Assembly (NCBI GenBank): GCA_016181965.1 | Contig: JACOYH010000003.1 | Coordinates: 129,013 to 193,012 of the forward strand | Direction: 5' to 3' | DNA from: Candidatus Nealsonbacteria bacterium | Lineage (GTDB): Bacteria; Patescibacteriota; Minisyncoccia; Minisyncoccales; MHMH01 | DNA: 64,000 nt | Notes under the pieces: generated by a model | Databases searched by the model: none | What the model was told of the DNA's origin: nothing | What the model saw: the letters and a program-made list of their open reading frames with translations, nothing else | Shown: positions 309-62,318 of the stretch, one piece after another | How positions within the stretch are numbered: position 1 is the first letter of the stretch | Layout: the number at the start of each line of letters is the position of its first letter | Program-made: the position numbers and the translations under genes

Positions 309-317
309 TGCTACAAT
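309..317 (+). promoter_or_regulatory. extended -10 element TGcTACAAT, 6 nt upstream of ATG 324 (leaderless-type layout)
   Basis: TG at 309-310, TACAAT at 312-317, ggagta, then ATG at 324. Confidence 0.4.
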
Positions 318-323
318 GGAGTA

Positions 324-704
324 ATGAGGAGTATATTATTCCTATATTTGGAATGGCATTTTGTGGACCGGCCGAAAGTCATCCTTGAGGGCTGGCTGAA
401 TTGCCTAAAGTTCAACCTTAACTACTGGTCGGTTCCCGTTCTTCTAAAGACCTATTTCAGTCATTGGCGGAGATATCGCTACTCATACGGCAGGGGGTTC
501 AATTTTAGCCGCTATATCGAGGCGTTTGCTTTCAATATGATTTCCCGCGCCGTGGGAGCCGTGATGCGGACTATTTTTATTTTTTTGGGAATAGCGGCAG
601 AAATTTTAATATTGGCAATCGGAATTTTTGCGATTTTATTCTGGCTGGTTTTGCCCGGCCTTTTATTTTTGGGGCTTTTTTATGGATTCCAAATTATATT
701 TTAA
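324..704 (+). CDS. hypothetical membrane protein
   Basis: ORF 306..704; first ATG at 324 (MRSILFLYLEWHF...). The C-terminal half is hydrophobic helices (IFIFLGIAAEILILAIGIFAILFWLVLPGLLFLGLF). Confidence 0.5.
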   Translation: MRSILFLYLEWHFVDRPKVILEGWLNCLKFNLNYWSVPVLLKTYFSHWRRYRYSYGRGFNFSRYIEAFAFNMISRAVGAVMRTIFIFLGIAAEILILAIGIFAILFWLVLPGLLFLGLFYGFQIIF

Positions 705-3105
705 TCTAAAAAGGGCTGAAATTTATCGAGCCGTAAGATGGGAATGGTTGTTCTATCCGGCGCGAACCGCCAAACTCATTTTGTTTGCTTTATTTATTTT
801 GTCTTTAGCGCTGTTTTTCTACGGCTTTCTATCGGAAACATTCCCGCGGCAAATGAATTCCCTATTACTGGGGCTGGCCGTGATCTCGCTGACTTCGGCA
901 GGAATTGCAAATGTCTTATCCGGTTTTTTTGGTCAAAAATTAAAGAATCCGAAAATTAAAGATGCCCATAATTTAGCCGAAAACTTGAGTTTTGAAGCGG
1001 CTAAAATCGTTAAGACGGGCAAATTAGACGATCCCAATCTGGACATCATTTTTTTTCGCCTTTTACTTGACCCGAAAGAAATTAAAAAAATAAAAATTGA
1101 CTTCGGGCCCGACTTGATTTTTGAGGCCCTAACTACGGCGCAAAAAAGAGGACACGCAAAAATCGAGTCGAGCGATTTGTTGCTGTCTTTAGCGGAAAAG
1201 CATCCGGTTTTCCAGAAATTTTTTATTGAAAACGATTTAAGGCCCGATGATGTTGAAAATCTAACTTGGTGGCTGGAGGCGCTGAAAAAAATGGCCGCAG
1301 AAGATAAGAAATGGTGGAAATATGAAAACCTAATAAAGAAAGGAACATTAGCCAAAGAATGGACTGCCGGATACACTATTAATTTAGATAAATATTCCGT
1401 TGATTGGACGGAAATCGCCAAAAAGCAAAAGTTTCCCGAGACCATTGGCCACAAAGCGGAAATCGAACAAACGGAAGTTATTCTGGGGCGCCATGAGTTT
1501 AATAATGCTTTGCTGGTGGGGGAGCCGGGCATCGGCAGGAAATCGATAATACGAGGCATCGTCAGAAAGTCGGTTTTCGGACAGAGTTTGCCCGATGTGA
1601 ACTATAAAAGAGTGGTTGAGCTGGACTTACCCTCGCTTTTGTCGGCGCTTTCCGACCCCGAAGAAGTAGAAGCGGTCCTCAATGCGATTTTTCAAGAAGT
1701 CGTTGCGGCGGGAAACGTTATTTTAGTAATTGATGAGTTCCATAATTTCATCGGCGTAAAGCCGGGTCCCGGTAAAATAGATATTTCCGGAGTTATTTCT
1801 TCGTACCTTCATCTGCCCAAGTTTCAAGTCGTGGCAATCACCACCTATGGCGGCCTGCATAAAAATATTGAGCAGAACGCCTCAATTCTTAATCTTTTTG
1901 AAAAAGTGGAAGTTCCCGAAATATCGGAAAAAGAGACAATAATGATTTTAGAAAATTTTGCCCTACAGCTCGAAGCAAAGTACGGTCTTTTTGTCAGCTA
2001 CCCGGCTATTAGAGAAATTATTTCCTTGAGCAAGCGTTTTATCCCAGACATTCCTTTCCCCAAAAAGGCCCTCGATCTTCTGGACGAAGCGATGGTCTAT
2101 GCTAAAAAATCAGGCAAAGAAAAAGTGATTATTCCCCAGCAGATAGCCAAAGTAATTTCACAGAGAACGCAAGTGCCGGTAGGCGCTATAGAAGAAAAAG
2201 AAAAAGAAATATTGCTGAATTTGGAAGAGCTTATTCACCAGCGAATTATTAATCAAAATGAAGCAGTTAGAGAGGTTGCCGCGGCCTTGCGAAGGGCAAG
2301 AGCTCAAGTGCAAACCAAGTCGGCCCCCATGGGAACGTTCCTATTTTTAGGACCGACTGGTGTTGGTAAAACAGAGACCTCCAAGGCCTTGGCCCACATA
2401 TACTTTGGCTCTGAATCGCGCATGATTCGGCTGGATATGTCGGAGTTCCAGGCGGTTTCAGATATTCCGCGTTTGATAGGTTCGGCCGGGGAAGAGGGTC
2501 TTTTGACAACAGCTGTTCGTGAGAATCCTTTTTCCCTGATACTACTTGATGAAATAGAAAAAGCCCACCCCAATATTCTTAATCTATTTTTGCAGGTACT
2601 TGATGAGGGTTTTATAACCGATGGTTTGGGCAGAAAAGTTGATTTCAAAAATACCATTATCATCTCAACGAGCAATGCCGGCTATCAAATAATTCTTAAA
2701 GCGCTTAAAGAGCAAACCGATTGGACTGGCCTGAAGCAGAAAATGCTCGACTGGCTTTTTGAGCAGGGCACGTTTCGGCCGGAATTTATAAATCGTTTTG
2801 ATGCCGTAGTTATTTTCAGCCCTCTTAGCAAGGAAAATCTTTTGGATATTGCAGAATTGATGCTGAAAAAATTACAGAAGAATATTAGGGAGAAAGGCAT
2901 CGATTTTGTTATAACCGCTTCCCTGAAGGAAGTGATTGTTGAACTGGGATATGATCCGACATTCGGAGCGCGCCAAATGAAAAGGGTGGTGCAGGACAAG
3001 ATAGAAAACGCTTTGGCCTCTGCGCTGTTGTCGGGCCAGCTGAAAAGAGGAGATAGGGTAGAGATTAACCACGAGACATTTGCGCCCTTAATTAGCCGGC
3101 CATGA
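682..3105 (+). CDS. Clp/Hsp100-family AAA+ ATPase (two AAA modules) with N-terminal transmembrane anchor
   Basis: ORF 628..3105, start moved to ATG 682. D1: GEPGIGRKS plus VILVIDEFHNF. D2: FLFLGPTGVGKTETSKALA plus LILLDEIEKAHP. Clp_N-like repeat (IESSDLLLSLAEKHP). Two hydrophobic helices near the N-terminus. Confidence 0.85.
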   Translation: MDSKLYFNLKRAEIYRAVRWEWLFYPARTAKLILFALFILSLALFFYGFLSETFPRQMNSLLLGLAVISLTSAGIANVLSGFFGQKLKNPKIKDAHNLAENLSFEAAKIVKTGKLDDPNLDIIFFRLLLDPKEIKKIKIDFGPDLIFEALTTAQKRGHAKIESSDLLLSLAEKHPVFQKFFIENDLRPDDVENLTWWLEALKKMAAEDKKWWKYENLIKKGTLAKEWTAGYTINLDKYSVDWTEIAKKQKFPETIGHKAEIEQTEVILGRHEFNNALLVGEPGIGRKSIIRGIVRKSVFGQSLPDVNYKRVVELDLPSLLSALSDPEEVEAVLNAIFQEVVAAGNVILVIDEFHNFIGVKPGPGKIDISGVISSYLHLPKFQVVAITTYGGLHKNIEQNASILNLFEKVEVPEISEKETIMILENFALQLEAKYGLFVSYPAIREIISLSKRFIPDIPFPKKALDLLDEAMVYAKKSGKEKVIIPQQIAKVISQRTQVPVGAIEEKEKEILLNLEELIHQRIINQNEAVREVAAALRRARAQVQTKSAPMGTFLFLGPTGVGKTETSKALAHIYFGSESRMIRLDMSEFQAVSDIPRLIGSAGEEGLLTTAVRENPFSLILLDEIEKAHPNILNLFLQVLDEGFITDGLGRKVDFKNTIIISTSNAGYQIILKALKEQTDWTGLKQKMLDWLFEQGTFRPEFINRFDAVVIFSPLSKENLLDIAELMLKKLQKNIREKGIDFVITASLKEVIVELGYDPTFGARQMKRVVQDKIENALASALLSGQLKRGDRVEINHETFAPLISRP

Positions 3106-9570: not shown

Positions 9571-9601
9571 AGGGCTTCGTTACACAACGAGGCCCTTTTT
9601 T
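9571..9601 (+). terminator. intrinsic terminator
   Basis: AGGGCTTCGT-tacaca-ACGAGGCCCT (one G.U pair) followed by a T-run. Confidence 0.7.
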
Positions 9602-9609
9602 GTTACAAT
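9601..9609 (+). promoter_or_regulatory. extended -10 TGtTACAAT, 6 nt upstream of ATG 9616
   Basis: TGT 9601-9603, TACAAT 9604-9609, gaaata, then ATG. No SD. Confidence 0.45.
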
Positions 9610-9615
9610 GAAATA

Positions 9616-12351
9616 ATGGCGCACACTTATTGGCATGCGCTTTCGTGGCAGGAAGCGATAAAAAAACTTGATTCGAATGCGGAAAACGGCCTGTCGCAAG
9701 ACGAGGTTCTTTTGAGGCAGAAAAAAATCGGCAAAAACACTCTTCCCGAAGAGAGACCGTTATCGGGCGTAATGATTTTTTTTGGTCAACTCAAAAGTCC
9801 GCTTATTTATATTTTGCTTGCCGCCGGAACCGTTGCGCTTTTTTTTAGGGAATGGCCCGACGCTACTGTAATTTTCGGCGCGGTTTTGCTCAACACCGCA
9901 GTCGGTTTTTTTCAGGAGCGAAAAGCCAGCCGCGCTCTTTTTGCCTTAAAAAAAGTTGTGAGAATTAAGGCCGATATTATCAGGGAGGGCCACGAAATAG
10001 AGATTGACCACCAAGAGATTGTACCGGGCGACATCGTCATTCTTTCCGCAGGCAAAAAGACACCAGCCGATGCCCGGCTCATAGAAGCGCGCGGTTTAAG
10101 TGTAAATGAAGCGCCGCTAACCGGGGAATGGCTTAGCGCCGTAAAGTCAACTCACGCGCTGAAAGAAGACACATCATTAGCCGACCGAGATAATATGGTT
10201 TATATGGGCACTGCGATTGTTGAGGGCAAGGGCAGGGCAGTAGCCGTAGCCACCGGAAACAAAACAGAAGTTGGCCGTATAGCTGTTTTAGTCAAGGAAA
10301 CGAAAGAGGAAAAAACCCCTTTACAGAAAAAATTAGCCAATTTCAGCAAGGTGATTGGCATTGTGGTTGTTTTTATGACCGGTTTTATTTTTCTTGGCGG
10401 CATTGCCAAAGGCGAGCCATTTTTGGAGATGTTTATGACTTCAGTGGCCGTGGCTGTGGCAGCCATTCCCGAGGGGTTGCCCGTGGCAATGACCGTAATT
10501 TTGACCCTGGGCATGCAACGAATTCTCAAAAGGAAGGGTTTGGTACGAAAGCTGGTGGCCGCAGAAATTTTAGGCAGTACTTCAATTATCGCCACCGATA
10601 AAACCCTAACACTAACCGAAGGTAAAATGCAGGTTGAGAAAACGTTCACCTGGGATGCCGCCATTGCCACTAACGCAAAACATGGCTGGGAAGATGTTTT
10701 TAAGCGTAACTTTAATGAAGAACAAAATTTCTTAATGAAAGCAGCGGCCCTATGCAGCCAAGCGTTTGTTGAAAATCCCGAAGAGCTCTATCCGTTTTGG
10801 CGCGTTAGGGGCGGGCCCACAGACAGCGCGCTTTTGCTGGCCGGCGCCATGGTGGGCATTCGAAAGCATGAATTGGAGATAGTTTACAAAAAGGAGGATG
10901 AAATTCCTTTTAATGCCGAAAATAAATATGTTGCCGCTTTGATTGGCGCGAAGCCCGCGTCAGAAATCACAAGGGAAACAAAAATATCACTAATCCGCGA
11001 CCCAATTCTTGAAGAAGCTGAGCGGGTGCTTTTCGTTTCGGGAGCTCCAGAAAAAATTATCGAAATATCTAATGGTGTTCTCCATGGCAGAGGAGTGGAA
11101 AAAATGAAGCCCGAAATGGCCCTGCGGCTTCAGGAGCAATTAGAAGAAATGACCAGCCGCGGACTGCGAGTGGTGGGTGTCGGTTACAAAGAAATGCGCG
11201 ACGAAAAATACAATCGGTTAGAGGACGAAGTAAATGATTTAATTTTTATTGGTTTTATAGGATTAAAAGACCCCCTAAGGCCCGAGGCAAAGGAGGCCAT
11301 AGGCCTTTGTCGGAAGGCCGGCATGAAACCAATTATTGTCACCGGCGACCATCTATTGACAGCCAAAGCGATAGGCGAAGAAATAGGCCTCAAAACCGGC
11401 GCTAAAAACATTATTAATGGCCCCGATATTGATGGAATGACAGAAAAAGAATTTCAGGAAAGAGTGAAAGAAATTGAAATATATTCCCGCGTGGAGCCAA
11501 GGCATAAACTAATGATAGTAGGGGCGTGGCAGAAAATGGGCAAAGTGGTGGCTATGACCGGCGACGGCATCAACGACGCGCCCGCCCTTAAGAAAGCCGA
11601 TATTGGAATTGCCCTCGGCTCGGGCACCGATGTGGCCAAGGAGGTGTCCGATCTCATTCTTTTGACCGATAATTTTAGCATTATCGTTGCGGCGATTGAA
11701 GAGGGCAGGGCGATTATTGATAACATCAGAAAGGTGATAACTTATTTGCTTTCCGACTCTTTTACCGAGACAATTTTAGTGGGAGCCAGTTTGCTTTTGG
11801 GTTGGCCGTTGCCCCTTACCGCCGTTCAGATTCTTTGGATTAATCTTATAGAAGACGGGTTGCCGGGAGTAGCTTTGGCCTTCGAACCAAAAGAGGCGGG
11901 TATTTTAGAAAGAAAGCCCAAAGATCACAACGCCCATCTTCTGACAAAAGAGATGAAAGTTATTATTTTTTTTATCGGCATCGCGACCGATATTCTCCTT
12001 CTCGGACTTTTATGGTGGCTTCTGAACGATAGCCGCGAGCTCAACCATATTAGGACGATAATGTTCGCCGCCCTCGGCATCGATTCTTTATTCTATATAT
12101 TCTCCTGCAAGAATCTTAGAAAAAATATCTGGCAGGTCAATCCTTTTTCTAATAAATTTTTAGTCCTTTCATGGTTAGTCGGAATGACTGCGCTGGCGGC
12201 GGCAGTTTACTTGCCTTTCTTGAATGTTCTACTGGAAACTGTTCCCCTGGATTTTGGAGAGTGGATTATAATTTTGGGACTGGGCGTTGCCAATATTTTA
12301 CTAATTGAAGCGGCAAAATATTATTTTATCGCGAGGCACCGAACGGAGTAA
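9616..12351 (+). CDS. P-type ATPase, P2 (Ca2+/cation-transporting) type
   Basis: 911 aa. LTGEW (TGE), DKTLTLT at the phosphorylation site, MTGDGINDAPALKKADIGIA, about 10 TM segments. N-terminus HALSWQEAIKKLDS is typical of Ca-ATPases. Confidence 0.9.
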   Translation: MAHTYWHALSWQEAIKKLDSNAENGLSQDEVLLRQKKIGKNTLPEERPLSGVMIFFGQLKSPLIYILLAAGTVALFFREWPDATVIFGAVLLNTAVGFFQERKASRALFALKKVVRIKADIIREGHEIEIDHQEIVPGDIVILSAGKKTPADARLIEARGLSVNEAPLTGEWLSAVKSTHALKEDTSLADRDNMVYMGTAIVEGKGRAVAVATGNKTEVGRIAVLVKETKEEKTPLQKKLANFSKVIGIVVVFMTGFIFLGGIAKGEPFLEMFMTSVAVAVAAIPEGLPVAMTVILTLGMQRILKRKGLVRKLVAAEILGSTSIIATDKTLTLTEGKMQVEKTFTWDAAIATNAKHGWEDVFKRNFNEEQNFLMKAAALCSQAFVENPEELYPFWRVRGGPTDSALLLAGAMVGIRKHELEIVYKKEDEIPFNAENKYVAALIGAKPASEITRETKISLIRDPILEEAERVLFVSGAPEKIIEISNGVLHGRGVEKMKPEMALRLQEQLEEMTSRGLRVVGVGYKEMRDEKYNRLEDEVNDLIFIGFIGLKDPLRPEAKEAIGLCRKAGMKPIIVTGDHLLTAKAIGEEIGLKTGAKNIINGPDIDGMTEKEFQERVKEIEIYSRVEPRHKLMIVGAWQKMGKVVAMTGDGINDAPALKKADIGIALGSGTDVAKEVSDLILLTDNFSIIVAAIEEGRAIIDNIRKVITYLLSDSFTETILVGASLLLGWPLPLTAVQILWINLIEDGLPGVALAFEPKEAGILERKPKDHNAHLLTKEMKVIIFFIGIATDILLLGLLWWLLNDSRELNHIRTIMFAALGIDSLFYIFSCKNLRKNIWQVNPFSNKFLVLSWLVGMTALAAAVYLPFLNVLLETVPLDFGEWIIILGLGVANILLIEAAKYYFIARHRTE

Positions 12352-13782: not shown

Positions 13783-13811
13783 TTGTCAATTGAGCAACCA
13801 ATTGTTAAAAT
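13783..13811 (+). promoter_or_regulatory. promoter TTGTCA-17-TGtTAAAAT, 6 nt upstream of rmuC ATG
   Basis: TTGTCA 13783-13788, TAAAAT 13806-13811 preceded by TGT, atctta, then ATG 13818. Confidence 0.5.
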
Positions 13812-13817
13812 ATCTTA

Positions 13818-14819
13818 ATGACTGATTTCTTTTTTATTTCATTGAGTATTTTCTCAATGATTGTAGTCGTGACAGTAGCTTTATTTTTCTGGAGAAAGAT
13901 AAATGTCGATCAGAATCAGTCGGCCAGCATTAAAGATCTGGAAAGGCGGCTTACCGACCTGATGATGGTTCAACTGAAAGAAATAAGAGATAGCCAGACG
14001 GGCACTTCCCGGGCAATGAACGAGCAGATTCGCTCGTTTACCCAAGAAGCGACTCGGATTAGAGAGGACATAAAACAAGTCCAGGAAAGAGTGAAAGACG
14101 TGTCTTCGTTTCAGGAAATTTTCAAAGCGCCAAAATTGAGGGGTCAGTGGGGCGAGGCATCGCTGGAACATATTCTTTCTCAACACTTCCCGCAAGAATT
14201 ATACGAAATGGAGCACTTATTTTTATCCGGAGAGAGGGTTGACGCGGTTCTGAAACTTCCTAACGGCCGGCTCTTGCCAATTGATGCCAAATTTCCGGCT
14301 GAAAACTTTGTTAGAATGATAGAGACGTCTGGCGAAGAAAGAGACGGCTTTCAGGCGAGGTTCGTCTCCGACCTGAAGGGGCATATTGATAAAATCGCAG
14401 GAAAGTATATAATACCTTCCGAGTCCACTGTTGAGTTTGCCTTAATGTATATCCCGGCCGAAGCCATATATTATGAGATAGTTAATAATATCGGCAGGGA
14501 TATTGACTTGACAAATTACGCCTGGACAAGGAAAATCATTCTGACTTCGCCAAACACCATTTATCTGACCCTGCGAACGATAGAGCATTGGTTCAAAGAC
14601 ACCCAGATTTCAAGGCAGACGCAGGAAATTCTAAAACGTCTGGACAGGGTTCAGCAGGATGCCGGCAAATTGACGCAGGATTTTCGCAAATTGGGCGCGC
14701 ACTTGAGAAATGCGGTTTCGTCATACGATACCTCGGAAAAACGCCTTACTTTATTTTCGGATAAAGTTGAACGGCTGAAAGAATTTAAAGAAGTTAAAAA
14801 ACTTAAACCCACAAAATAA
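13818..14819 (+). CDS. rmuC: DNA recombination protein RmuC
   Basis: N-terminal TM plus coiled coil, then VDAVLKLPNGRLLPIDAKFPAENF..ALMYIPAEAIYYE, typical of RmuC. Confidence 0.85.
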   Translation: MTDFFFISLSIFSMIVVVTVALFFWRKINVDQNQSASIKDLERRLTDLMMVQLKEIRDSQTGTSRAMNEQIRSFTQEATRIREDIKQVQERVKDVSSFQEIFKAPKLRGQWGEASLEHILSQHFPQELYEMEHLFLSGERVDAVLKLPNGRLLPIDAKFPAENFVRMIETSGEERDGFQARFVSDLKGHIDKIAGKYIIPSESTVEFALMYIPAEAIYYEIVNNIGRDIDLTNYAWTRKIILTSPNTIYLTLRTIEHWFKDTQISRQTQEILKRLDRVQQDAGKLTQDFRKLGAHLRNAVSSYDTSEKRLTLFSDKVERLKEFKEVKKLKPTK

Positions 14820-15853: not shown

Positions 15854-17218
15854 TTAGAAAAATTCTTCTTCTTGTTGCTGTTTTGCAAGATTGCGGTAAC
15901 TGACTTTCTGGCTGTCAAAAAATAGTTTAATGGCTCCCACGGGTCCGTTTCTATGCTTGGCAATGAGAATTTCCGCCACATTTTGAGGTGTTTCCTCGCC
16001 CTTAACTTTTTCTCTGTAGATAAATAAAACCACATCGGCGTCTTGCTCGAGCGAGCCGCTTTGCCGCAAGTCGGCCAGCCGCGGCCTTGGGGGGGTTCGC
16101 ATTTCGACTGCTCTCGATAATTGCGAGAGGGCTAAAACCGGCACATTCAATTCCCGGGCTAGGGCCTTGAGCGAGCGTGAAATTTCCGTTACCTGCTGGA
16201 CTTCGCCGGCATTGGAGTTGCGCGGCTCCATTAACTGGAGATAGTCAACGATAATCAGGCCCAAGCCCTTTTCGGCTTGCAAACGTCGCGCCATGGCTCT
16301 CATCTGCAAGATGTTGGAGGTGAGCCCGTCGTCTATGTAAATAGGGGCCTCGGAAAGGTCGCCTAATCCCTGTTGGATCATTTGGAAATCATCGGCCGAA
16401 AGTTTGCCGGTTCGCAATTTCCAAAGATCCACTCCGGCTTGAGCGGCAATGAGACGGTCAACTATTTGGTCTTTTGACATTTCCAAGCTGAATATTCCCA
16501 CGGGAAGATTTTGATGGATGGCTATATTTCGCGCAATATCCACAGCCAGCGCCGATTTACCCATGCTGGGCCGGGCGGCAAGAATTATTAAATCGGATTT
16601 TTGAAGACCGGCCAGCATATTGTCTAAGTCGGCAAAGCCGGTGGGTATGCCCCGGATTTGTCCGCCTTGTTTCGAGAGAATGTCCATTCGTTCAAAGGCC
16701 TCAGCTAGCGTGGATTTTACGGGAATAAAGTTTTGACTCAAAGAATGTTGGGCTATGCCAAAAACAACTTTTTCCGCCTGATCCAGCAGTTGGTCAACGT
16801 CTTCGTCTTCTTTGTACCCCATGACGCCTATTTCATATGAGGCGGCAATCAGGTCGCGCAGAATTCTCTTCCTCTGAACAATTTTTGCGTAGGTTGGCGC
16901 ATTTGAGGCAGTCGGCACCGTATTGATAAGATCGGTGAGGTAGGCATTGCCCCCGATTGCCTCAAGCTGGCTCTCTTCGCGGAGTTTAGTCGCTACAGAA
17001 AGCAAATCAACTGGATCGCTTCTCTCAAAAAGTTTTTGTATGGCCGCGTATATTGCCTGATGCGTGCCTTTGTAGAAATCGCGCGGCTGTAAAAAATCTA
17101 CAACCTTAATAATGGCATTCTTATCCAACATTAAAGAACCCAAAAGGCATTGCTCGGCCTCGATATTTTGAGGAGGCACTTTATCGGGGAGTTCTTGGTT
17201 CGAATTTTTTTGCTGCAT
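15854..17218 (-). CDS. dnaB: replicative DNA helicase DnaB
   Basis: PPQNIEAEQCLLGSLM, Walker A ARPSMGKSALA, IIVDYLQLM, SQLSRAVE. Confidence 0.95.
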   Translation of the reverse strand: MQQKNSNQELPDKVPPQNIEAEQCLLGSLMLDKNAIIKVVDFLQPRDFYKGTHQAIYAAIQKLFERSDPVDLLSVATKLREESQLEAIGGNAYLTDLINTVPTASNAPTYAKIVQRKRILRDLIAASYEIGVMGYKEDEDVDQLLDQAEKVVFGIAQHSLSQNFIPVKSTLAEAFERMDILSKQGGQIRGIPTGFADLDNMLAGLQKSDLIILAARPSMGKSALAVDIARNIAIHQNLPVGIFSLEMSKDQIVDRLIAAQAGVDLWKLRTGKLSADDFQMIQQGLGDLSEAPIYIDDGLTSNILQMRAMARRLQAEKGLGLIIVDYLQLMEPRNSNAGEVQQVTEISRSLKALARELNVPVLALSQLSRAVEMRTPPRPRLADLRQSGSLEQDADVVLFIYREKVKGEETPQNVAEILIAKHRNGPVGAIKLFFDSQKVSYRNLAKQQQEEEFF

Positions 17219-17221
17219 TAA

Positions 17222-18628
17222 CTACAATGTAGCAGAGCGCATATCTTTTTTCAACTTTGGGCCGGCCTCCGTGTCTTCCACTTGCCAGCCAAGGCGGGCG
17301 ATTCTTTCTCTGATTTCGTCTGCCTTGGGCCAGTTTCTATCTTTTCGATATTTCTCTCTTTCTTCAGCGAGTTCCAAAACCACCGCAGGGATTGATTTTT
17401 TCTGCGGCCAGAATATAACTTTAAAAACGCGGTCAATTTTTTTCAAAAATGCCACGACATTTTGCGCATCGGTTTTGCTCAATAAATTTTGATCTATCAG
17501 GGCGTTGCCCTGCTTGATGAGTTCGAAAATAACAGCCATGGCTTTTGGGGTGTTAAAATCATCTTCCATGGCTTCGGCAAAATTCGTTTGAAATTCTGAT
17601 ATCTTGAGGTTCGACATCTGCGGAAGGCCGAACCCCCTTAATGACGATAACTTGTCCACAAACTCATCTATTCTCGCCAGCTCTCTTTCTGCCTGTAAAA
17701 GAGATGACTCCGCGTAATCCAACCCGGAGCGGTAATGGGTCTTCAGAACTAAGAATCTCAAGAGACGCGCTGAATATTTTTTAAGAAAGTCCTGTATCGC
17801 GATGAAGTTGCCGAGTGACTTCGACATTTTTTGCCCCCCGACCGTCAAAAAGCCCGTGTGCAGCCAGTATCTAACCATGGGCTTCTTTCCCGAGAGCGCT
17901 TCCATTTGGGCAATTTCTGCTTCGTGGTGCGGGAATATCAAATCCTTGGCGCCGCCGTGCATATCATATCGATAGCCGAAAAACTTTTGACTAATAGCGG
18001 TATCTTCTATGTGCCAGCCGGGTCTGCCAGGACCCCATGGACTGGGCCATGACGGCTCTCCGTCCCTAGATAATTTCCAAAGAGCAAAATCGCCCTTGTT
18101 TCTTTTTTCTTTGGAATCGTCAATCCGGGAAACAGCGTCCTCGGCCTGGAGAGCGGTTCGTAGGGAAAGTTCGCCGTAGTTCTTGAATTTCTTGATATCG
18201 TAATAAACGCCGTCTGAGATTTGATAAGCAAAACTTTTCGCCCTAAGCTTTTTTACTTGTACGATTATCTCTTTTATATAGTCGGTAGCTCTGGCGTATT
18301 TGGTGACCGAGTTTACTTTCAGCGCTTTCATATCCTTGAAATATTCCCGTTCGAAATTCCTGGCCATTTTTAAGGGAGGCATATTTTTTTCCTTGGCTCG
18401 CTGGATGATTTTGTCGTCTATGTCGGTGATATTTTGCAGATAGAAAACATCGAAGCCCTTCTCCTTGAGGTATCTTACGATTACGTCAAAAGCCACATAA
18501 GTGCGGGCATGGCCAATATGTGAAAAGTCATATACCGTCGGGCCGCAGACAAAAAGTTCGAGGAAGTCGCGTTTTCTCGTCTTTAATATTTCCTTATCGC
18601 GAGATAGCGTGTTATAGACCTTAAGCAT
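17222..18628 (-). CDS. cysS: cysteine--tRNA ligase
   Basis: HIGHARTY (HIGH) and KMSKSLGN (KMSKS) motifs. 468 aa. Confidence 0.95.
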   Translation of the reverse strand: MLKVYNTLSRDKEILKTRKRDFLELFVCGPTVYDFSHIGHARTYVAFDVIVRYLKEKGFDVFYLQNITDIDDKIIQRAKEKNMPPLKMARNFEREYFKDMKALKVNSVTKYARATDYIKEIIVQVKKLRAKSFAYQISDGVYYDIKKFKNYGELSLRTALQAEDAVSRIDDSKEKRNKGDFALWKLSRDGEPSWPSPWGPGRPGWHIEDTAISQKFFGYRYDMHGGAKDLIFPHHEAEIAQMEALSGKKPMVRYWLHTGFLTVGGQKMSKSLGNFIAIQDFLKKYSARLLRFLVLKTHYRSGLDYAESSLLQAERELARIDEFVDKLSSLRGFGLPQMSNLKISEFQTNFAEAMEDDFNTPKAMAVIFELIKQGNALIDQNLLSKTDAQNVVAFLKKIDRVFKVIFWPQKKSIPAVVLELAEEREKYRKDRNWPKADEIRERIARLGWQVEDTEAGPKLKKDMRSATL

Positions 18629-18635
18629 TAATTGT

Positions 18636-18644
18636 ATTTTAGCA
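18636..18644 (-). promoter_or_regulatory. extended -10 TGcTAAAAT, 7 nt upstream of cysS ATG (minus strand)
   Basis: Reverse complement of 18636-18644 is TGCTAAAAT, then acaatta, then ATG at 18628. Confidence 0.45.
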
Positions 18645-18651
18645 TTTTTAA

Positions 18652-18660
18652 TGATACTAT
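18652..18660 (+). promoter_or_regulatory. extended -10 TGaTACTAT, 6 nt upstream of gtrA-like ATG
   Basis: TGA 18652-18654, TACTAT 18655-18660, gacaaa, then ATG 18667. Confidence 0.45.
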
Positions 18661-18666
18661 GACAAA

Positions 18667-19095
18667 ATGCAACTCATATTTCGCCAGGCAATAAAATTTA
18701 TTTTGATCGGCATACTGAATACGGTCATTGATTTGGGCATACTAAACGTTTTAATCTTAATCTCGGGCGTATCCGCCGGCCTTAGCTATTCAATATTTAA
18801 GGGAATCAGTTTTACTGCGGCCGTCATCAACAGTTATTTTTTAAATAAATCTTGGACTTTTCAGAGAGGCGCGACAGGCGCGCCCCGAAAAGAATTTACG
18901 CAATTTTTTATAGCGAGCGTTATCGGCTTTGGCATAAATGTCAGCACAGCGTCTTTCGTGGTTAACTTTATCGGACCCCAACTCGGCGTTGGGGCTAATA
19001 TCTGGGCAAACGTTGGAGCAATTCTGGCAACGCTTACGGCTATGTTCTGGAACTTCCTTACTTATAAGTTTATTGTTTTCAAAAAATATGTCTAA
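18667..19095 (+). CDS. GtrA-family membrane protein
   Basis: 142 aa, 4 TM. KFILIGILNTVIDLGILN...WNFLTYKFIVF pattern of the GtrA family. Confidence 0.8.
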   Translation: MQLIFRQAIKFILIGILNTVIDLGILNVLILISGVSAGLSYSIFKGISFTAAVINSYFLNKSWTFQRGATGAPRKEFTQFFIASVIGFGINVSTASFVVNFIGPQLGVGANIWANVGAILATLTAMFWNFLTYKFIVFKKYV

Positions 19096-21909: not shown

Positions 21910-21941
21910 ACAGCCATCTAATCAGTTGAGGAGGAAGGGAA

Positions 21942-41659: not shown

Positions 41660-41674
41660 AATTATTAAATAAAA

Positions 41675-41680
41675 TAATAT
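41675..41680 (+). promoter_or_regulatory. -10 TAATAT, 6 nt upstream of ATG 41687
   Basis: TAATAT, aaaaat, then ATG. No TG extension. Confidence 0.3.
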
Positions 41681-41686
41681 AAAAAT

Positions 41687-44056: not shown

Positions 44057-45070
44057 TTAGATTTCTCTGCCAATCGCGGCAGTTAATCTTTTTAGGTCTG
44101 CCATGAGTTCGGTAAAGCCGGAAAAAGTTAATGACTGCGGGCCGTCTTTCAGGGCCTCCATCGGATTTGGATGCACCTCTATGAGTAAGCCATCGGCAAT
44201 CACTGCGGCGGCTCGCGCCATGTCGGGAACATAACGCCGATCTCCAGCCGCGTGACTCGGATCCACTATGACCGGCAGGTGGCTGAATCTTTTTATAACC
44301 GGCACGGCGCTGATATCAAGAGTGTACCGCGTGGACGGTTCAAATGTTTTGATGCCTCTTTCGCAGAGAATAAGATTCGGATTGTTTCTTCGCAGAATGT
44401 AGTCGGCCGCTTGGAGCCATTCGGTAATTGACATTCCAAAACCGCGCTTTAAGAGGATGGGTTTTCCGGCTTGACCAACCTCTTCCAATAAGTCGTAGTT
44501 TTGGCAATTCCGAGCGCCGATCTGAAGAATGTCGGCGCACTCTGAAACCAATTCCACATCCCGCGGGCTGAGCACTTCAGTGACGATTTTGAGGCCGGTT
44601 TCTTCTTTAGCCGCGGCAAGTATTCGCAAGCCGTCCTCACCCATTCCTTGGAATTTGAAAGGCGACGTGCTGGGCTTGTAAGCGCCGCCCCGCAGAATCT
44701 TGGCGCCCAATTTTTTGACCAGTCGCGCCGTAAGGAGAACTTGTTCTTCCGACTCGACGGCGCAAGGCCCGGCGATAATTATAACCGCCTGGCCGCCGAT
44801 TTCCACATCGCCAATTTTAACTACCGTTTTGTCTTGCTGAAAGTCGCGCGAGGCGAGTTTATGCGGCTGCATTATGCGGAATACCCGCTCCACTTCGGGA
44901 AGGGCTTCAAAAATCTCGGTGGCAATGCTGCCCGTATCTCTGCCCAAGACGGCGATAACCACTTTTTCTTGGCCGGCATTGATTTGGGCTTCGCACTCCA
45001 GACCTCTGATTTTGCCAATGACGCGGCGAATGCTGTCCTGTGACGCAGCTGTCTGCATCTCGATGATCAT
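44057..45070 (-). CDS. 3-deoxy-7-phosphoheptulonate (DAHP) synthase, type I-beta with N-terminal regulatory domain
   Basis: 337 aa. N-terminal ~70-aa ferredoxin-like domain, then IIAGPCAVESEEQ...LRGGAYKPSTSPFKFQG...PVIVDPSHA, like the Thermotoga-type enzyme. Confidence 0.8.
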   Translation of the reverse strand: MIIEMQTAASQDSIRRVIGKIRGLECEAQINAGQEKVVIAVLGRDTGSIATEIFEALPEVERVFRIMQPHKLASRDFQQDKTVVKIGDVEIGGQAVIIIAGPCAVESEEQVLLTARLVKKLGAKILRGGAYKPSTSPFKFQGMGEDGLRILAAAKEETGLKIVTEVLSPRDVELVSECADILQIGARNCQNYDLLEEVGQAGKPILLKRGFGMSITEWLQAADYILRRNNPNLILCERGIKTFEPSTRYTLDISAVPVIKRFSHLPVIVDPSHAAGDRRYVPDMARAAAVIADGLLIEVHPNPMEALKDGPQSLTFSGFTELMADLKRLTAAIGREI

Positions 45071-45141
45071 TGCGGCATTTCCCCCCTTTTTTGTAAAAAG
45101 CTATGCTGGATTATAGCCCTATTATACATTTTTTGTCAATG

Positions 45142-45150
45142 TGATATTAT
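45142..45150 (+). promoter_or_regulatory. extended -10 TGaTATTAT, 8 nt upstream of galU ATG
   Basis: TGA 45142-45144, TATTAT 45145-45150, gaaatcgt, then ATG 45159. Confidence 0.4.
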
Positions 45151-45158
45151 GAAATCGT

Positions 45159-46031
45159 ATGATTAATAAAGCGATTATTCTCACCGCCGGAGTCGGAACC
45201 AGATTCCTTCCGCTCTCTAAAGCCGTTTCCAAAGAACTTATGCCATTAGTTGATAAGCCGGTTATTCAGTACCTCTTGGAAGAGGCGATGGAGGCGGGCG
45301 TGACAGAGGCAATCTTCGTGGTTTCTCCCGGCAAAAAAAAGGAAATAGAGGGCTATTTCAAGAAGTCGCCGAAATTAGAGAAGCTTCTTAAAGAAAGAAA
45401 GCAGGACGGACTATTAGAGCGCGTTCAGCGCATCGAAGAAATTTCACAGAAAATTAATTTTGTCTTTGTTACCCAAAAACTGCCGCTTGGCGATGGCCAT
45501 GCCATACTTCAGGCGCGAAAATTTATTCAGGAGCCATGCGCTATTTTTACCAACGATGACATTATTGACTCGCCCACGCCTTGTCTTTCACAAATGATTC
45601 AGGTTTTTAAAACAAGCCAAAAGCCGTTGCTTGCCCTAAACCGCCTGTCAGAAGATAAACTCCCTCACTATGGAACTGTTGATGTTGAAAAAATCGCCTC
45701 AAGGGTCTACAAAATTAAAAAAATTGTAGAAAAGCCAAAGGCCGGCGAAGCCCCCTCCGACCTCGCTATCGTCGGCCGATATATTATTACGCCGGAGGTC
45801 TTTGAATATCTAAAAAAAGTTGAGCCAAACCAAAAAAACGAGATTATTTTGGCCGATGCTCTTTCGGCCATGATATTGGACGGAAAGATGGTTTACGGCC
45901 ACGAAATTGAAGGCCGCTGGCTGGAGTGCGGCGACATATTGCGCTGGCTGCAATCGACATTTTATTTTTCGCTTAAACACCCCGAATATGGAAATGTCCT
46001 TCGAAAATATTTAAAGGAGATTATTAAGTAA
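45159..46031 (+). CDS. galU: UTP--glucose-1-phosphate uridylyltransferase
   Basis: KAIILTAGVGTRFLPLSKAVSKELMPLVDKPVIQY. Confidence 0.9.
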   Translation: MINKAIILTAGVGTRFLPLSKAVSKELMPLVDKPVIQYLLEEAMEAGVTEAIFVVSPGKKKEIEGYFKKSPKLEKLLKERKQDGLLERVQRIEEISQKINFVFVTQKLPLGDGHAILQARKFIQEPCAIFTNDDIIDSPTPCLSQMIQVFKTSQKPLLALNRLSEDKLPHYGTVDVEKIASRVYKIKKIVEKPKAGEAPSDLAIVGRYIITPEVFEYLKKVEPNQKNEIILADALSAMILDGKMVYGHEIEGRWLECGDILRWLQSTFYFSLKHPEYGNVLRKYLKEIIK

Positions 46032-48159: not shown

Positions 48160-48821
48160 TTATGGGGAAACTAATTTTATTAAGGCATTTTAAATCGCAG
48201 TGGAATTTGGAAAATCGTTTTACGGGCTGGACCGATGTGCCGCTTGCCAAGGAAGATGCTGGCAAAATCAGCGAAATTTCCGCGTTTTTATCCAGCGCGA
48301 AAATTGATATCGTTTATACCTCGCCGCTCGTCAGAAATATGGCAAGTTGTTTATTGGCTCTTGAGAAAACGAATAAATACCCGATTTTCAGGCACTTCGG
48401 AGGCAAGATGAAAGAATGGGGTAATTTTGAGGAGCTGGCATCAGCTTATCTGCCGGTTTTCGTAAGCGAAGCATTAAATGAAAGATACTATGGCAAGCTG
48501 CAGGGGCTAGACAAAGAAGAAACAATGAATAAATACGGCGCGGAGCAAGTTCGTCTTTGGCGAAGAAGTTATGATGTAGCTCCTCCCGGCGGAGAAAGTT
48601 TAAAAGATGTTTATAAACGAACCATTCCCTTCTACCAAAAAAATACAGAAAATGCCCTGAAAGACGGTAAGAATATTTTAATAGTTGCCAGCCATAATTC
48701 TTTGAGGGCGATCATAAAATACATCGAGAGGATAGCTGACAATGATATCATCAATACAGAAGTGCCTTACGCAGGTCTTCTGGGGTATGAATTCCGGGAC
48801 GGAGTTTACAAAAAATTATAA
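48156..48821 (+). CDS. gpmA: 2,3-bisphosphoglycerate-dependent phosphoglycerate mutase family protein
   Basis: LILLRHFKSQWNLENRFTGWTDVPL (RH...WN motif), SHNSLRA. Start is TTG 48156 or ATG 48162. Confidence 0.8.
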   Translation: MIMGKLILLRHFKSQWNLENRFTGWTDVPLAKEDAGKISEISAFLSSAKIDIVYTSPLVRNMASCLLALEKTNKYPIFRHFGGKMKEWGNFEELASAYLPVFVSEALNERYYGKLQGLDKEETMNKYGAEQVRLWRRSYDVAPPGGESLKDVYKRTIPFYQKNTENALKDGKNILIVASHNSLRAIIKYIERIADNDIINTEVPYAGLLGYEFRDGVYKKL

Positions 48822-48827
48822 ATTAAC

Positions 48828-48833
48828 TAATAT
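48828..48833 (+). promoter_or_regulatory. -10 TAATAT, 6 nt upstream of ATG 48840
   Basis: TAATAT, aatcct, then ATG within an 18-nt intergenic gap. Could equally be read-through from gpmA. Confidence 0.25.
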
Positions 48834-48839
48834 AATCCT

Positions 48840-49187
48840 ATGGACAATATTAAAATAAATAACATGATTAATAGCGCCAAAAATTATAAGACCGTCATTA
48901 TCGCGGTTGTTATTTTGGCTGTAGTCGGAGTTGCGGCTTATTTTGAATCCGGCCTTTTTATTCGCCCGAATCTCACCAAGGCGCAGGCAGCGGATATAGC
49001 AATCAAATTCATTGATCAAAGCATTGATGAAAACGCGACTGCTTCTCTCATAGAAGCAACCGACGAAGGCCAGGTCTACGGACTTCATATCGAGATCGAA
49101 GGCACAGAATACCAGTCATACATTACCAAAGACGGGAAATTCCTTTTTCCCAATGGTTTTAATTTAAAGACAGAGCCGGGAAATTAA
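48840..49187 (+). CDS. hypothetical membrane-anchored protein
   Basis: 115 aa. One TM (TVIIAVVILAVVGVAAY). No motif recognised. Confidence 0.5.
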   Translation: MDNIKINNMINSAKNYKTVIIAVVILAVVGVAAYFESGLFIRPNLTKAQAADIAIKFIDQSIDENATASLIEATDEGQVYGLHIEIEGTEYQSYITKDGKFLFPNGFNLKTEPGN

Positions 49188-59274: not shown

Positions 59275-59297
59275 ATACACCGGTTCAACCGGTGTAT
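59275..59297. repeat. REP palindrome copy (loop TCA)
   Basis: ATACACCGGT-TCA-ACCGGTGTAT, 21 nt upstream of the RAYT ATG. Confidence 0.9.
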
Positions 59298-59306
59298 TGA
59301 TTATCC

Positions 59307-59312
59307 TATCAT
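59307..59312 (+). promoter_or_regulatory. -10 TATCAT, 6 nt upstream of RAYT ATG
   Basis: TATCAT, agaaca, then ATG 59319. Confidence 0.35.
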
Positions 59313-59318
59313 AGAACA

Positions 59319-60032
59319 ATGAAACGTCCAAAGTTTGCTAACGGCGAATTTTATCATATTTATAACAGGGGAGTAGAGAAAAGAAATATCTTTCAGCAGA
59401 TTTCTGATTATTTTCGATTTATTTCCTGTTTATATGAACTAAACGATAAAAAATTAATTAAAATGCGTGATCGTTTCGATGAACGTCAAAAAAGTAAATA
59501 CACCGGTTCAACCGGTGTATCTCGGGAACCGCTACTAGAGATTGTAGTATTTTGCCTAATGCCAAATCATTACCATTTAATTGTGCGTCAATTGGCAGAT
59601 GGAGGAATTTCACTTTTCATGAAAAAATTATCAAATGGTTATACCGGATACTTTAATGAAAAATATCATAGAAAGGGGATCGGGTCATTATTCCAGGGAC
59701 GCTTTAAAGCTGTACATGTAAAAAATAATAGGCAGTTGATGGCTTTAGTGTGTTATATTTTTACTAACCCCGTTGAATTAATGGAAAAAAATTGGAAAGA
59801 GAGAGGAGTGAAAGATTTTAAGAAAACTATTAAATTTTTAAAATCTTATCGTTGGTCCAGTTATTTAGACTATATTGGAATACCAAATTTTTCATCTGTA
59901 ACGAAAAGAAATTTTGTAACAGAATTTTTCGGCGGACCTGATAAGATACAAAAAGCCGTGGAAGATTGGATTCTTTATAAAACAGAACTCAATAGTGGTT
60001 TAGGGGGAATAGGAAGTATGGTTTTAGATTAA
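59319..60032 (+). CDS. IS200-like Y1 (HUH) transposase, RAYT type
   Basis: GEFYHIYNRGVEKRNIF, HUH block MPNHYHLIV, YRWSSYLDY (Tyr region). Very AT-rich gene. Confidence 0.85.
   Translation: MKRPKFANGEFYHIYNRGVEKRNIFQQISDYFRFISCLYELNDKKLIKMRDRFDERQKSKYTGSTGVSREPLLEIVVFCLMPNHYHLIVRQLADGGISLFMKKLSNGYTGYFNEKYHRKGIGSLFQGRFKAVHVKNNRQLMALVCYIFTNPVELMEKNWKERGVKDFKKTIKFLKSYRWSSYLDYIGIPNFSSVTKRNFVTEFFGGPDKIQKAVEDWILYKTELNSGLGGIGSMVLD
59498..59520. repeat. REP palindrome copy inside the RAYT coding sequence
   Basis: The same 23-mer, read in frame: with the flanking codons it encodes KYTGSTGVS. Confidence 0.9.
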
Positions 60033-62086: not shown

Positions 62087-62092
62087 CTCGAA

Positions 62093-62302
62093 TTATCGGC
62101 TCTTTTTGGCAAGCCGCTTCCTGTATTTCTCAACGCGTCCCATGCTGTCAATCACCTTTTCTTTGCCAGTGTAGAGCGGGTGGCAGGCGGAACAAATTTC
62201 CACATCAATAAGTTCCTTAGTTGAGCCCACGCTAAAATTGGCGCCGCAGGCGCATTGAACTTTTGCCTTGTTGTAGTATTTAGGATGAATGTCTTTCTTC
62301 AT
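62093..62302 (-). CDS. rpmE: 50S ribosomal protein L31
   Basis: [10 protein letters not shown]...CACG...[11 protein letters not shown]. Confidence 0.95.
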
Positions 62303-62309
62303 GTTTTTT

Positions 62310-62318
62310 AATATAACA
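62310..62318 (-). promoter_or_regulatory. extended -10 TGtTATATT, 7 nt upstream of rpmE ATG (minus strand)
   Basis: Reverse complement of 62310-62318 is TGTTATATT, then aaaaaac, then ATG at 62302. Confidence 0.45.

Follow-up and report, generated by a model that had tools for sequence, protein, structure and literature searches.

Ordinary sigma-70 promoters placed directly at ATG codons probably give rise, in a Candidatus Nealsonbacteria genome, to mRNAs that lack a 5' UTR and a Shine-Dalgarno (SD) site and that are translated by leaderless initiation. The window analyzed is a 64,000-nt stretch of a genome assembled from a metagenome (Parcubacteria, CPR; ultra-small), from a lineage with ~45% GC and a tiny genome. 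About 15 of its ~33 transcription-unit heads (~45%) are leaderless-type. At about 11 further heads the same promoter, with an identical hexamer, stands 17-40 nt upstream, and a strong SD lies between it and the start. Most internal operon genes lack both signals; their distance to the preceding stop codon is -4 to +5 nt, which fits translational coupling.

In the proposed mechanism, the promoters are of the housekeeping sigma-70 type, their extended -10 element (TGnTAnAAT) being strong and their -35 element (TTGnnn, 16-18 nt upstream) weak to moderate, and would direct RNA polymerase to start at the A of the ATG or 1-2 nt before it. The resulting mRNAs would carry neither a 5' UTR nor an SD site, and their 5'-terminal AUG would be bound directly by the ribosome and initiator tRNA. 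The initial annotation had proposed that leaderless mRNAs are widespread in this DNA, and the proposal is computationally well supported. Sequence comparison demonstrates the motif and its spacing, its character as a promoter, the exclusion of SD sites and the recurrence in relatives; from these we infer the leaderless status itself, that is, the position of transcription start and the mode of translation.

Sites and their genomic setting

The 14 motif/spacer/ATG strings listed at the outset are all present at their coordinates and strands (Table 1). Their -10-like hexamers have the form TAnnnT apart from that of 31604, which is CAAAAT. Most lie at gene or operon heads as claimed, but the ATG at 31604 does not belong to an operon head gene, the match at 41687 may well be chance, and 48840 has an ambiguous start. 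Two sites had been overlooked, those of dnaB (17218, minus strand) and xseA (39109, plus strand).

Table 1. Leaderless-type sites of the window, with three leadered promoters for contrast (spacer lengths stand between the elements)
Gene	Coordinates	Strand	Elements and start
126-aa hypothetical gene	288..326	+	weak -35 GGGGCT; TGcTACAAT (309-317), 6 nt, ATG 324
P-type cation ATPase	9581..9618	+	TACACA, 17 nt, TGtTACAAT, 6 nt, ATG 9616
rmuC	13783..13820	+	TTGTCA, 17 nt, TGtTAAAAT, 6 nt, ATG 13818
dnaB (added beyond the 14)	17216..17254	-	TTGAAA, 17 nt, TGcTACATT (TGCTACATT), 7 nt, ATG 17218
cysS	18626..18665	-	TTGTCA, 18 nt, TGcTAAAAT, 7 nt, ATG 18628
GtrA-family gene	18632..18669	+	TGaTACTAT, 6 nt, ATG 18667; divergent from cysS promoter
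71-aa gene (NCBI-annotated ORF)	30881..30920	+	-35 TTGCTT; TACAAT without TG, 8 nt, ATG 30918; moderate confidence
Upstream of ychF	31569..31681	+	TGGACA, 17 nt, TGgCAAAAT, 6 nt, ATG 31604; weak site
Candidate 69-aa ORF	32720..32761	+	-35 TTGATA; TGcTATAAT, 8 nt, ATG 32759
208-aa membrane protein gene	35534..35569	+	TGtTATAAT, 6 nt, ATG 35567; right after terminator 35509-35533
xseA (added beyond the 14)	39074..39111	+	TTGCGA, 16 nt, TGaTAAAAT (TGATAAAAT), 7 nt, ATG 39109
Cupin (weak candidate)	41651..41689	+	TAATAT without TG or -35, 6 nt, ATG 41687; very A/T-rich DNA
GalU-like nucleotidyltransferase	45123..45161	+	TATACA, 16 nt, TGaTATTAT, 8 nt, ATG 45159
Ambiguous-start gene	48805..48842	+	TTTACA, 17 nt, TAATAT, 6 nt, ATG 48840
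Y1 (IS200-like) transposase	59284..59321	+	TATCAT, 6 nt, ATG 59319; right after REP-like palindrome
rpmE (L31)	62300..62338	-	TTTACT, 17 nt, TGtTATATT, 7 nt, ATG 62302
Contrast, leadered, SD-dependent	21881..21944	+	TTGACA, 17 nt, TATAAT (12/12), ~25-nt leader with GAGGAGG, TTG start 21942
Contrast, leadered	45068..45139	-	TTGACA, 18 nt, TATAAT (12/12), leader with GGGGGG, ATG 45070
Contrast, leadered	35154..35187	+	TGAGTATAAT, ~15-nt leader with AGGAGG, ATG 35185

The setting of the sites bears on an alternative in which the promoters are real but most expression depends on transcripts begun further upstream, whether through read-through or at promoters within the neighboring gene, and the leaderless form is a minor isoform. 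The dnaB and xseA starts lie 3-13 nt after a gene on the same strand, which makes read-through plausible at both; the dnaB promoter is internal, within the 3' end of cysS, and that of xseA overlaps the end of the preceding gene (stop 39095). ATG 324 likewise follows a same-strand ORF that ends 35 nt before it. At several other sites, strong terminator hairpins (9570-9597, 35509-35533, 32706-32724) or divergent genes (before 13818, 18628/18667, 30918, 45159 and 62302) come directly before the promoter, which argues against transcripts from upstream. The P-type ATPase promoter overlaps the T-tract of its terminator hairpin, and the -35 element of 32759 sits in the 3' arm of the hairpin before it. 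The cysS and gtrA promoters overlap back-to-back with both -10 elements inside the 38-bp intergenic region, which leaves leaders no room, and the 45159 promoter overlaps a divergent leadered promoter (45139-45110, minus strand). A leadered form of these mRNAs would, moreover, have no SD for its translation. Transcription mainly from further upstream thus has a small chance of being the general rule.

Promoter anatomy and Shine-Dalgarno use

The motif has the parts of a sigma-70 promoter: a TAnnnT hexamer with TG one base upstream and a TTGACA-like -35 element at 16-18 nt. When 132 sites from the window and relatives were aligned, positions -23 to -21, counted from the hexamer, held T, T and G in 76, 75 and 48 sites, which places the -35 TTG 17 nt upstream of the -10, and TG was present in 58. 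The mean best -35 match was 3.27/6 with a 16-18 nt spacer vs. 2.49 and 2.36 at control spacers. Among the 16 tabulated window sites, 11 have a -35 score of at least 4/6 and 12 have TGn. Because the -35 TTG stands at 17 nt, the -10 is extended by TG, and the same motif lies upstream of SD genes, the motif is, judged by its anatomy, a sigma-70 promoter and not a ribosome-binding signal. In a survey of 49 species, transcription typically began 7 bp downstream of the -10 element (PMC12641261). The commonest -10-to-ATG spacing here is 6 nt, so the predicted canonical +1 is the A of the ATG.

SD sites were scored as SD-like motifs of at least 4 nt located 4-13 nt upstream of the start. As had been claimed, none was found at the leaderless-type starts of the window (0/15), and only 3/109 such starts in relatives have one. 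SD is present in 11/24 other window heads and 2/31 internal genes, and SD-like 5-mers peak 5-9 nt before starts. Motif and SD are mutually exclusive at window starts; the SD depletion that had been suggested as a check therefore falls at exactly the leaderless-type starts. A point against the leaderless reading is that coding regions of the leaderless type show no less structure over their first 30 nt than other genes do.

Low SD use (13/70 window genes vs. 38/55 in E. coli) could also mean that the A/T-rich motif is no promoter but acts in translation on a leadered mRNA, as a ribosome-binding or enhancer element of the non-SD kind known from Bacteroidota (GeneMarkS-2 "group B"). The anti-SD of close relatives' 16S rRNAs reads GGAUCACUACAUUU and GGAUCAUAUCCUUU in place of GGAUCACCUCCUUA, and some lack CCUCC, so that some non-SD mechanism must exist there; the anti-SD motif is missing from about half of Parcubacteria 16S rRNAs (PMC9297842). 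The motif also precedes a few "internal" genes. A translation signal should, however, be equally frequent before internal genes, whereas the strict motif is found at 11% of heads vs. 4% of internal genes (7/162), largely but not only at operon heads. The TTG at exactly 17 nt and the TG at -15/-14 are RNA-polymerase contacts, and the identical motif recurs at leader distance upstream of SD-led genes. A ribosome-binding element is thus an improbable reading of the motif.

Start codons, spacing and recurrence in relatives

At about 10 of the 16 sites the start is supported as genuine by profile or orthologue N-termini and by NCBI starts. NCBI annotates the same ATG for 324, 30918, 35567, 59319, cysS, xseA (373 aa) and dnaB. 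Pfam domains start within residues 1-21 in L31 (profile positions 1-64 align with residues 1-64), the P-type ATPase (residue 6), CysS, GtrA (complete domain, residues 10-138; in-frame stop 15 nt upstream of the ATG), the NTP transferase (residue 4), XseA (OB-fold from residue 11) and DnaB (residue 15). Conservation of CysS and L31 among relatives begins at residue 1, and most orthologues have a single ATG between the preceding stop and the aligned region.

These matches make it very unlikely that the starts were generally mis-called, i.e., that the true starts lie downstream and ordinary leaders were read as N-terminal coding sequence. Several hypothetical genes have no family to anchor the N-terminus, and three sites are uncertain or fail. 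The 48840 gene encodes 115 aa from ATG 48840, or 107 aa from ATG 48864, where NCBI begins it 8 codons later and which would leave a leader of 24 nt. ATG 31604 opens a very basic ORF of 25 codons that ends 1 nt before ychF (ATG 31683); ychF has its own GAGGA 10 nt upstream and its YchF domain begins at residue 5. The 25-codon peptide has no entry in the protein collection, and the site may be either a leaderless uORF or merely the ychF 5' UTR. The 69-aa ORF at 32759 likewise has no entry there and is a putative gene, its hydrophobic N-terminal stretch being read as a probable membrane anchor.

The initial remark that all sites use ATG is circular for the sites given, since ATG was what they had been selected on, but a start-agnostic count in this lineage gave an ATG-only peak, with 34, 18 and 14 at spacers of 6, 7 and 8 nt and zero for GTG and TTG at the same spacers. 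Its addition that leaderless initiation requires ATG was too strong. In mycobacteria, leaderless mRNAs commonly begin with GTG.

The extended motif TGNTANNNT (TGnTAnnnT) followed by N6-8-ATG has 16 matches in the window vs. ~4.5 in the dinucleotide shuffles that define chance expectation for the whole window (6+6+4 at spacers of 6, 7 and 8 nt vs. 1.51+1.33+1.65). Eleven of the matches coincide with the first ATG of an ORF of 69 aa or more. The remaining five, at non-start positions (13500, 42883, 52535, 12576, 17551), are about the chance number; the excess is located at gene starts. For the head-gene test, ORFs were chosen automatically and scored at their first ATG, with positions 12-47 nt upstream as background. 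An extended -10 ends 6-8 nt before the ATG in 8/35 window head genes vs. 0.5 expected (P = 6e-8), and plain TANNNT in 12 vs. 3.4. In 40 related Parcubacteria loci the strict motif is found at 39/358 heads vs. 4.0 expected (P = 3e-25). Enrichment over positional background is 16-fold in the window and 10-fold in the relatives, while adjacent spacings of 0-5 and 9-12 nt are flat. The TAnnnT peak before starts that had been proposed as a check was thus recovered, sharp at 6-8 nt with a mode of 6 in the window and relatives; no TGNTANNNT peak at 6-8 nt was present in the controls, 747 archaeal genes and E. coli. In E. coli, TANNNT lies 6-8 nt before the start in 3/55 annotated CDS, about the chance level, and the extended motif at 6-8 nt in none of the chosen ORFs.

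The layout is kept in orthologues despite differing flanking sequence. Of 39 cysS orthologues that share the conserved MLKxYNTL start, about 18 retain a -10 hexamer, mostly TGnTAnnnT, 6-8 nt upstream, and the same layout occurs in orthologues of the P-type ATPase (6/8), rmuC (6/9) and dnaB (10/24) and in 2/3 distinct relatives for rpmE. Both homologues found of the 59319 transposase (L043 and L007) have TGaTAnnnT 6-8 nt before the ATG. The L003 homologue of the 30918 gene is SD-led, the L013 orthologue of the 41687 cupin gene is without the motif, and in L082 the layout is found at 0/16 genes; it is not universal among relatives.

The association of motif and start is not chance. Chance alone would account for about three of the plain-TANNNT sites. 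The notion that A/T-rich intergenic DNA simply yields TAnnnT near ATGs, from which the 6-8 nt cases were picked, is viable for 2-3 individual weak sites such as 41687, but is refuted for the whole set, where it has next to no credibility against the fold excess, the flat spacings of 0-5 nt, the peakless controls, the co-occurrence of the hexamer with -35 and TG, and the spacing kept in orthologues.

Implications and comparison with known systems

Other bacteria are well known to make leaderless mRNAs, and the mechanism is textbook; the advance therefore lies in the range of taxa covered rather than in a new principle. A literature search found no paper linking Parcubacteria/CPR to leaderless mRNAs. 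These bacteria are almost entirely uncultivated, and their gene expression is known from sequence alone. Tentatively, SD-independent initiation may be the default in Parcubacteria, about half of the transcripts being leaderless and most internal genes being translated by SD-less termination-reinitiation coupling. If true, this default would go hand in hand with the eroded or missing 16S anti-SD of close relatives and the reduced CPR ribosome, and would offer a functional setting for the published finding that about one in two Parcubacteria 16S rRNAs lacks the anti-SD motif (PMC9297842). If true lineage-wide, one of the largest bacterial radiations would join Actinobacteria, Deinococcus and archaea as leaderless-rich, with consequences for CPR gene calling and heterologous expression. 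Since the -10 box would pin the start, gene finders should model it in CPR metagenome-assembled genomes, and CPR expression constructs could use a TGnTAnAAT-N6-ATG cassette. Leaderless genes without a 5' UTR would leave little for 5' UTR-based regulation to act on; if about half of the units are leaderless and fewer than one-fifth of genes use SD, riboswitches and sRNA pairing at the ribosome-binding site would have little target there.

The extended -10 sigma-70 promoters of E. coli and Firmicutes resemble those described here in their TGnTAnAAT, their weak -35 at 16-18 nt and a start expected 7 bp on, but they are normally followed by a 5' UTR with an SD, unlike those of the window. Archaeal leaderless transcription (GeneMarkS-2 "group D") likewise yields many AUG-start transcripts and SD-independent initiation; the archaeal TATA box, however, lies ~26 nt upstream, and the fetched archaeal loci have no TGNTANNNT peak at 6-8 nt. 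Bacteroidota (group B) share the low SD use, but their motif precedes all genes, internal ones included, and acts on the mRNA, whereas the motif here is head-enriched, though not confined to heads, and has promoter anatomy. Assignment to group B was rejected on the 11% vs. 4% difference and the -35 partner.

The closest counterpart is GeneMarkS-2 "group C", defined by a Pribnow box 6-8 nt from the first genes of operons and no SD there, in 25-50% of operons (PMC6028130). The window, with a Pribnow-like motif 6-8 nt upstream at ~15 of ~33 heads (~45%), and the relatives, with 39/358 heads by the strict motif, resemble the group C genomes of Actinobacteria (e.g., Mycobacterium, Streptomyces and Corynebacterium) and Deinococcus-Thermus. 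Nealsonbacteria differs from them as a member of the Parcubacteria/CPR with ~45% GC and a tiny genome. Its peak is ATG-only, whereas mycobacteria use GTG as well. Its internal genes are mostly without SD, whereas group C genomes are described with ribosome-binding sites there, and its promoter depends on the extended -10 TG.

A promoter motif at gene starts

A -10-like hexamer of the form TAnnnT, often preceded by TGn, had been placed 6-8 nt before the ATG at 14 gene or operon heads in the initial annotation, and all 14 motif, spacer and ATG strings are present exactly as given there. On the two strands of the window (G+C 44.7%), the extended motif (TGNTANNNT) is followed by ATG after 6, 7 or 8 nt in 6+6+4 = 16 cases, where dinucleotide-preserving shuffles predict 1.5+1.3+1.65. 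Eleven of these 16 matches hit a gene's first ATG; the remaining five are dispersed at non-start positions, the number due to chance. Since the motif occurs 122 times in the window, ~0.2 coincidences would be expected with ~70 gene starts. Enrichment was also scored on an automatic ORF set, taking the first ATG of each ORF as its start and positions 12-47 nt upstream as background. Among the 35 head genes (the first genes of transcription units), eight have the extended motif ending 6-8 nt before the start vs 0.5 predicted (P = 6e-8), and 12 have the plain motif TANNNT there vs 3.4 predicted. The spacing between motif and ATG has its mode at 6 and is flat at 0-5 and from 9 on. Two leaderless-type sites (hexamer 6-8 nt before ATG) missing from the original list, at dnaB and xseA, were added (see table). 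Copying of one repeated promoter cassette as the source of the sites was rejected, as a repeat search links none of them.

When 132 sites, drawn from the window and from related loci, were aligned by their hexamer, T, T and G proved enriched at -23 to -21 (76, 75 and 48 of 132), which puts a TTG 17 nt before the hexamer, and a TG stood one base ahead of the hexamer in 58 sites. The mean best -35 match is 3.27/6 at 16-18 nt spacing vs 2.49 and 2.36 at control spacings, and 11 of 16 window sites have a -35 element scoring at least 4/6 at 15-19 nt. A generic promoter and terminator scan, weakly above shuffles, was used only to confirm individual -35/-10 pairs and promoter-adjoining terminators. 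The strict (extended) motif is present at 11% of head genes vs 4% of genes lying <25 nt behind an upstream gene. The motif is built like a sigma-70 extended -10 promoter and not like a ribosome-binding site (RBS); its preference for head genes and its -35 and TG partners rule out a "non-SD RBS" of the Bacteroidota type. Genes with a strong Shine-Dalgarno (SD) sequence carry the same hexamer 17-40 nt upstream (starts 21942, 23564, 34849, 35185 and 42194 and, on the minus strand, 45070, 30801 and 13719). The distance from promoter to ATG is thus bimodal: 6-8 nt without SD or 17-40 nt with SD.

The layout recurs in relatives of the window, which belongs to Parcubacteria/Paceibacteria in the Candidate Phyla Radiation (CPR). 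Across 559 genes on 40 Parcubacteria loci that are related, TGNTANNNT is found 27, 8 and 13 times at spacings 6, 7 and 8 over a background of ~1.5 per position, and 39 of 358 head genes carry the motif vs 4.0 expected (P = 3e-25). No such peak appears in 40 archaeal loci from the same search (747 genes) or in 50 kb of E. coli sequence. When the DNA behind every TGNTANNNT was scanned regardless of called starts, ATGs heading ORFs of 80 aa or more numbered 34, 18, 14, 9 and 14 at spacings of 6 to 10 vs ~3 elsewhere, with no such peak for GTG and TTG. The positional -10 peak before starts, proposed earlier as a genome-wide check, is seen in the window and the related loci, with mode 6. The layout is retained in orthologues whose neighbouring sequence is otherwise different: cysS (~18 of 39, each bearing a conserved MLKxYNTL N-terminus), P-type ATPase (6/8), rmuC (6/9), dnaB (10/24), the transposase (2/2 homologues) and rpmE (two of three distinct relatives). 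There is also turnover; related locus L082 has no motif-bearing start in 16 genes, and the homologue of gene 30918 in locus L003 is SD-led. The best CysS relatives, on one-genome-per-species contigs, are 55-66% identical, with labels including Paceibacterota, Wildermuthbacteria, Nealsonbacteria and Yanofskybacteria. In the window and loci L027-L080, CysS is of archaeal type; next after the CPR matches come DPANN and methanogen archaea at 47-56% identity, not other bacteria. At least 120 L31 homologues were found, 72-91% identical to the query among the matches listed, and the few source-named ones are Parcubacteria.

Predicted leaderless mRNAs and their start codons

In 49 bacterial species with mapped starts, transcription start positions centre 7 bp past the -10 element (PMC12641261). 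With a six-base spacer the A of ATG is the seventh base and hence the predicted start; spacers of 7-8 bases would give a leader of 1-2 nt. The 15 window starts of leaderless type all lack an SD-like motif, as had been claimed for the 14 listed heads, and 3 of 109 in relatives have one. At several places the predicted geometry leaves no alternative to a leaderless start: cysS and the gtrA-family gene are divergent, and the 38 bp between them hold both -10 elements, each -35 overlapping the partner's promoter. The T-tract of the terminator hairpin in front of the ATPase gene forms part of its promoter, and the promoters of 35567 and 32759 adjoin or overlap terminators. Folding of the first 30 nt gave no sign of less structured 5' ends (MFE -1.84 for leaderless-type vs -2.04 kcal/mol for other genes, P = 0.56). 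Promoter geometry, the spacing peak, the absence of SD and recurrence in relatives all support the leaderless interpretation, the 5' ends being predicted ones; most of the strong sites probably give mRNAs with predicted leaders of 5 nt or less.

Most of the ATGs are backed as true starts. Pfam profiles begin at residue 1 (L31), 4 (nucleotidyltransferase), 6 (ATPase), 10-11 (GtrA and XseA), 15 (DnaB) and 21 (CysS), and seven of the checked genes have their NCBI start at this same ATG. Four sites are exceptions. The NCBI start of 48840 lies eight codons downstream, the 69-aa ORF at 32759 is absent from the protein collection, and 41687 is without TG or -35 in A/T-rich DNA. At 31604, where the hexamer is CAAAAT, a 25-codon, extremely basic ORF at the predicted +1 stops 1 nt before the start of ychF, a gene with its own GAGGA at 10 nt. 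The small ORF may be translated as a leaderless uORF and coupled to ychF. YchF has been reported to modulate leaderless translation, according to work cited in PMC12641178.

Shine-Dalgarno usage and other elements

With an SD scored, alike in both organisms, as 4 nt or more matching the AGGAGG/GGGGG family at 4-13 nt before the start, 13 of 70 window genes have one vs 38 of 55 annotated E. coli genes. SD-like 5-mers peak 5-9 nt before starts; therefore a working anti-SD is probably kept in the window organism. SD sequences are mainly at leadered heads (11/24) and hardly at internal, later operon genes (2/31). The other 29 internal genes lack an SD-like motif, and about half (16/35) start within -4 to +5 nt of the stop codon before them, which suggests translational coupling by termination-reinitiation. 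TAATG/ATGA-type junctions are common in relatives. The 16S rRNA 3' ends of two close relatives (GGAUCACUACAUUU and GGAUCAUAUCCUUU) are without CCUCC, in agreement with the detection of the anti-SD motif in only 48% of Parcubacteria (PMC9297842). The 16S 3' end of related locus L084 does not align at all to the usual helix 45 and tail, and in both L084 and L086 LAGLIDADG ORFs are called beside or within the 16S rRNA gene.

Several other elements lie in the window. Five copies of a REP-like palindrome cluster round a Y1 (IS200-like) transposase gene, one of them in frame within its coding sequence; the arrangement resembles a RAYT/REP-type system, here in a CPR genome. There are two more families of long perfect palindromes in intergenic DNA, some acting as terminator-like hairpins between genes. 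Tandem octamers reach into ATG 20242, the start of a gene for a "23S rRNA-intervening sequence protein", and no promoter or SD is visible before that ATG in the repeat region. Gene 20719 starts 7 nt past the 3' end of tRNA-Gln, and tRNA-Glu starts 9 nt past the stop of the preceding gene; speculatively, tRNA processing could yield near-leaderless 5' ends. The stretch after tRNA-Glu includes one 50-nt palindrome; no ORF in it is convincing, and no Rfam family scores above threshold. On the minus strand, a perfect consensus promoter is followed by a ~100-nt SD-less leader, a 60-aa CxxC...CxxC ORF, read as a putative zinc ribbon, and a strong terminator; this element has no Pfam or Rfam match. 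The Rfam search returned two tRNAs and otherwise nothing relevant.

Features of the window and 16S rRNA 3' ends of relatives
Feature	Coordinates	Strand	Detail
dnaB start	ATG 17218	minus	TGCTACATT-7
xseA start	ATG 39109	plus	TGATAAAAT-7
cysS	17222-18628, ATG 18628	minus	
gtrA-family start	ATG 18667	plus	
Terminator hairpin before ATPase	9570-9597		
Terminator at promoter of 35567	35509-35533		
Terminator at promoter of 32759	32706-32724		
ORF up to ychF start	31604-31683		MGMSWSNKKRRDRKVRRRQRKRGSA
Junction of tRNA-Gln and gene 20719	20641-20721		
Junction of preceding gene and tRNA-Glu	8899-8985		
Stretch after tRNA-Glu	8986-9615		630 nt
Tandem octamers	20160-20255		~ten, TTAAGTCA (some TTGAGTCA)
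Minus-strand element	31132-31497	minus	
Its promoter	31497-31470	minus	TTGACA-16-TATAAT
Its ORF	31355-31173	minus	60 aa
Its terminator	31168-31132	minus	
REP-like palindromes	42082-42110, 59274-59302, 59497-59525, 60047-60075, 60971-60999		AATACACCGGTTCAACCGGTGTATTT
Y1 transposase gene	59319-60032		
Long palindromes	9022-9071, 15174-15223		50 nt, 90% identity
Long palindromes	4395-4437, 31514-31556		43 nt, 98% identity
16S 3' end, L082	6317-6350		
16S 3' end, L086	4657-4690		
16S 3' end, L084	5014-5050		

Relation to known systems

No publication among the papers searched links leaderless mRNAs to Patescibacteria, CPR, Parcubacteria or Saccharibacteria; an unpublished assignment, or one given only in GeneMarkS-2 genome tables, may exist. 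The finding is suggestive of a largely SD-independent translation in Parcubacteria and of use in interpreting and annotating CPR genomes. Mechanistically the leaderless-type layout is not new. In GeneMarkS-2 group C, described for Actinobacteria and Deinococcus-Thermus, a Pribnow box lies 6-8 nt from the starts of first operon genes and 25-50% of operons are leaderless (PMC6028130). The window layout is exactly as defined for that group in the promoter and leaderless features that sequence can test, and would place it there. The remaining genes of group C use an RBS, which holds here in part, for 11 of 24 other heads and 2 of 31 internal genes.
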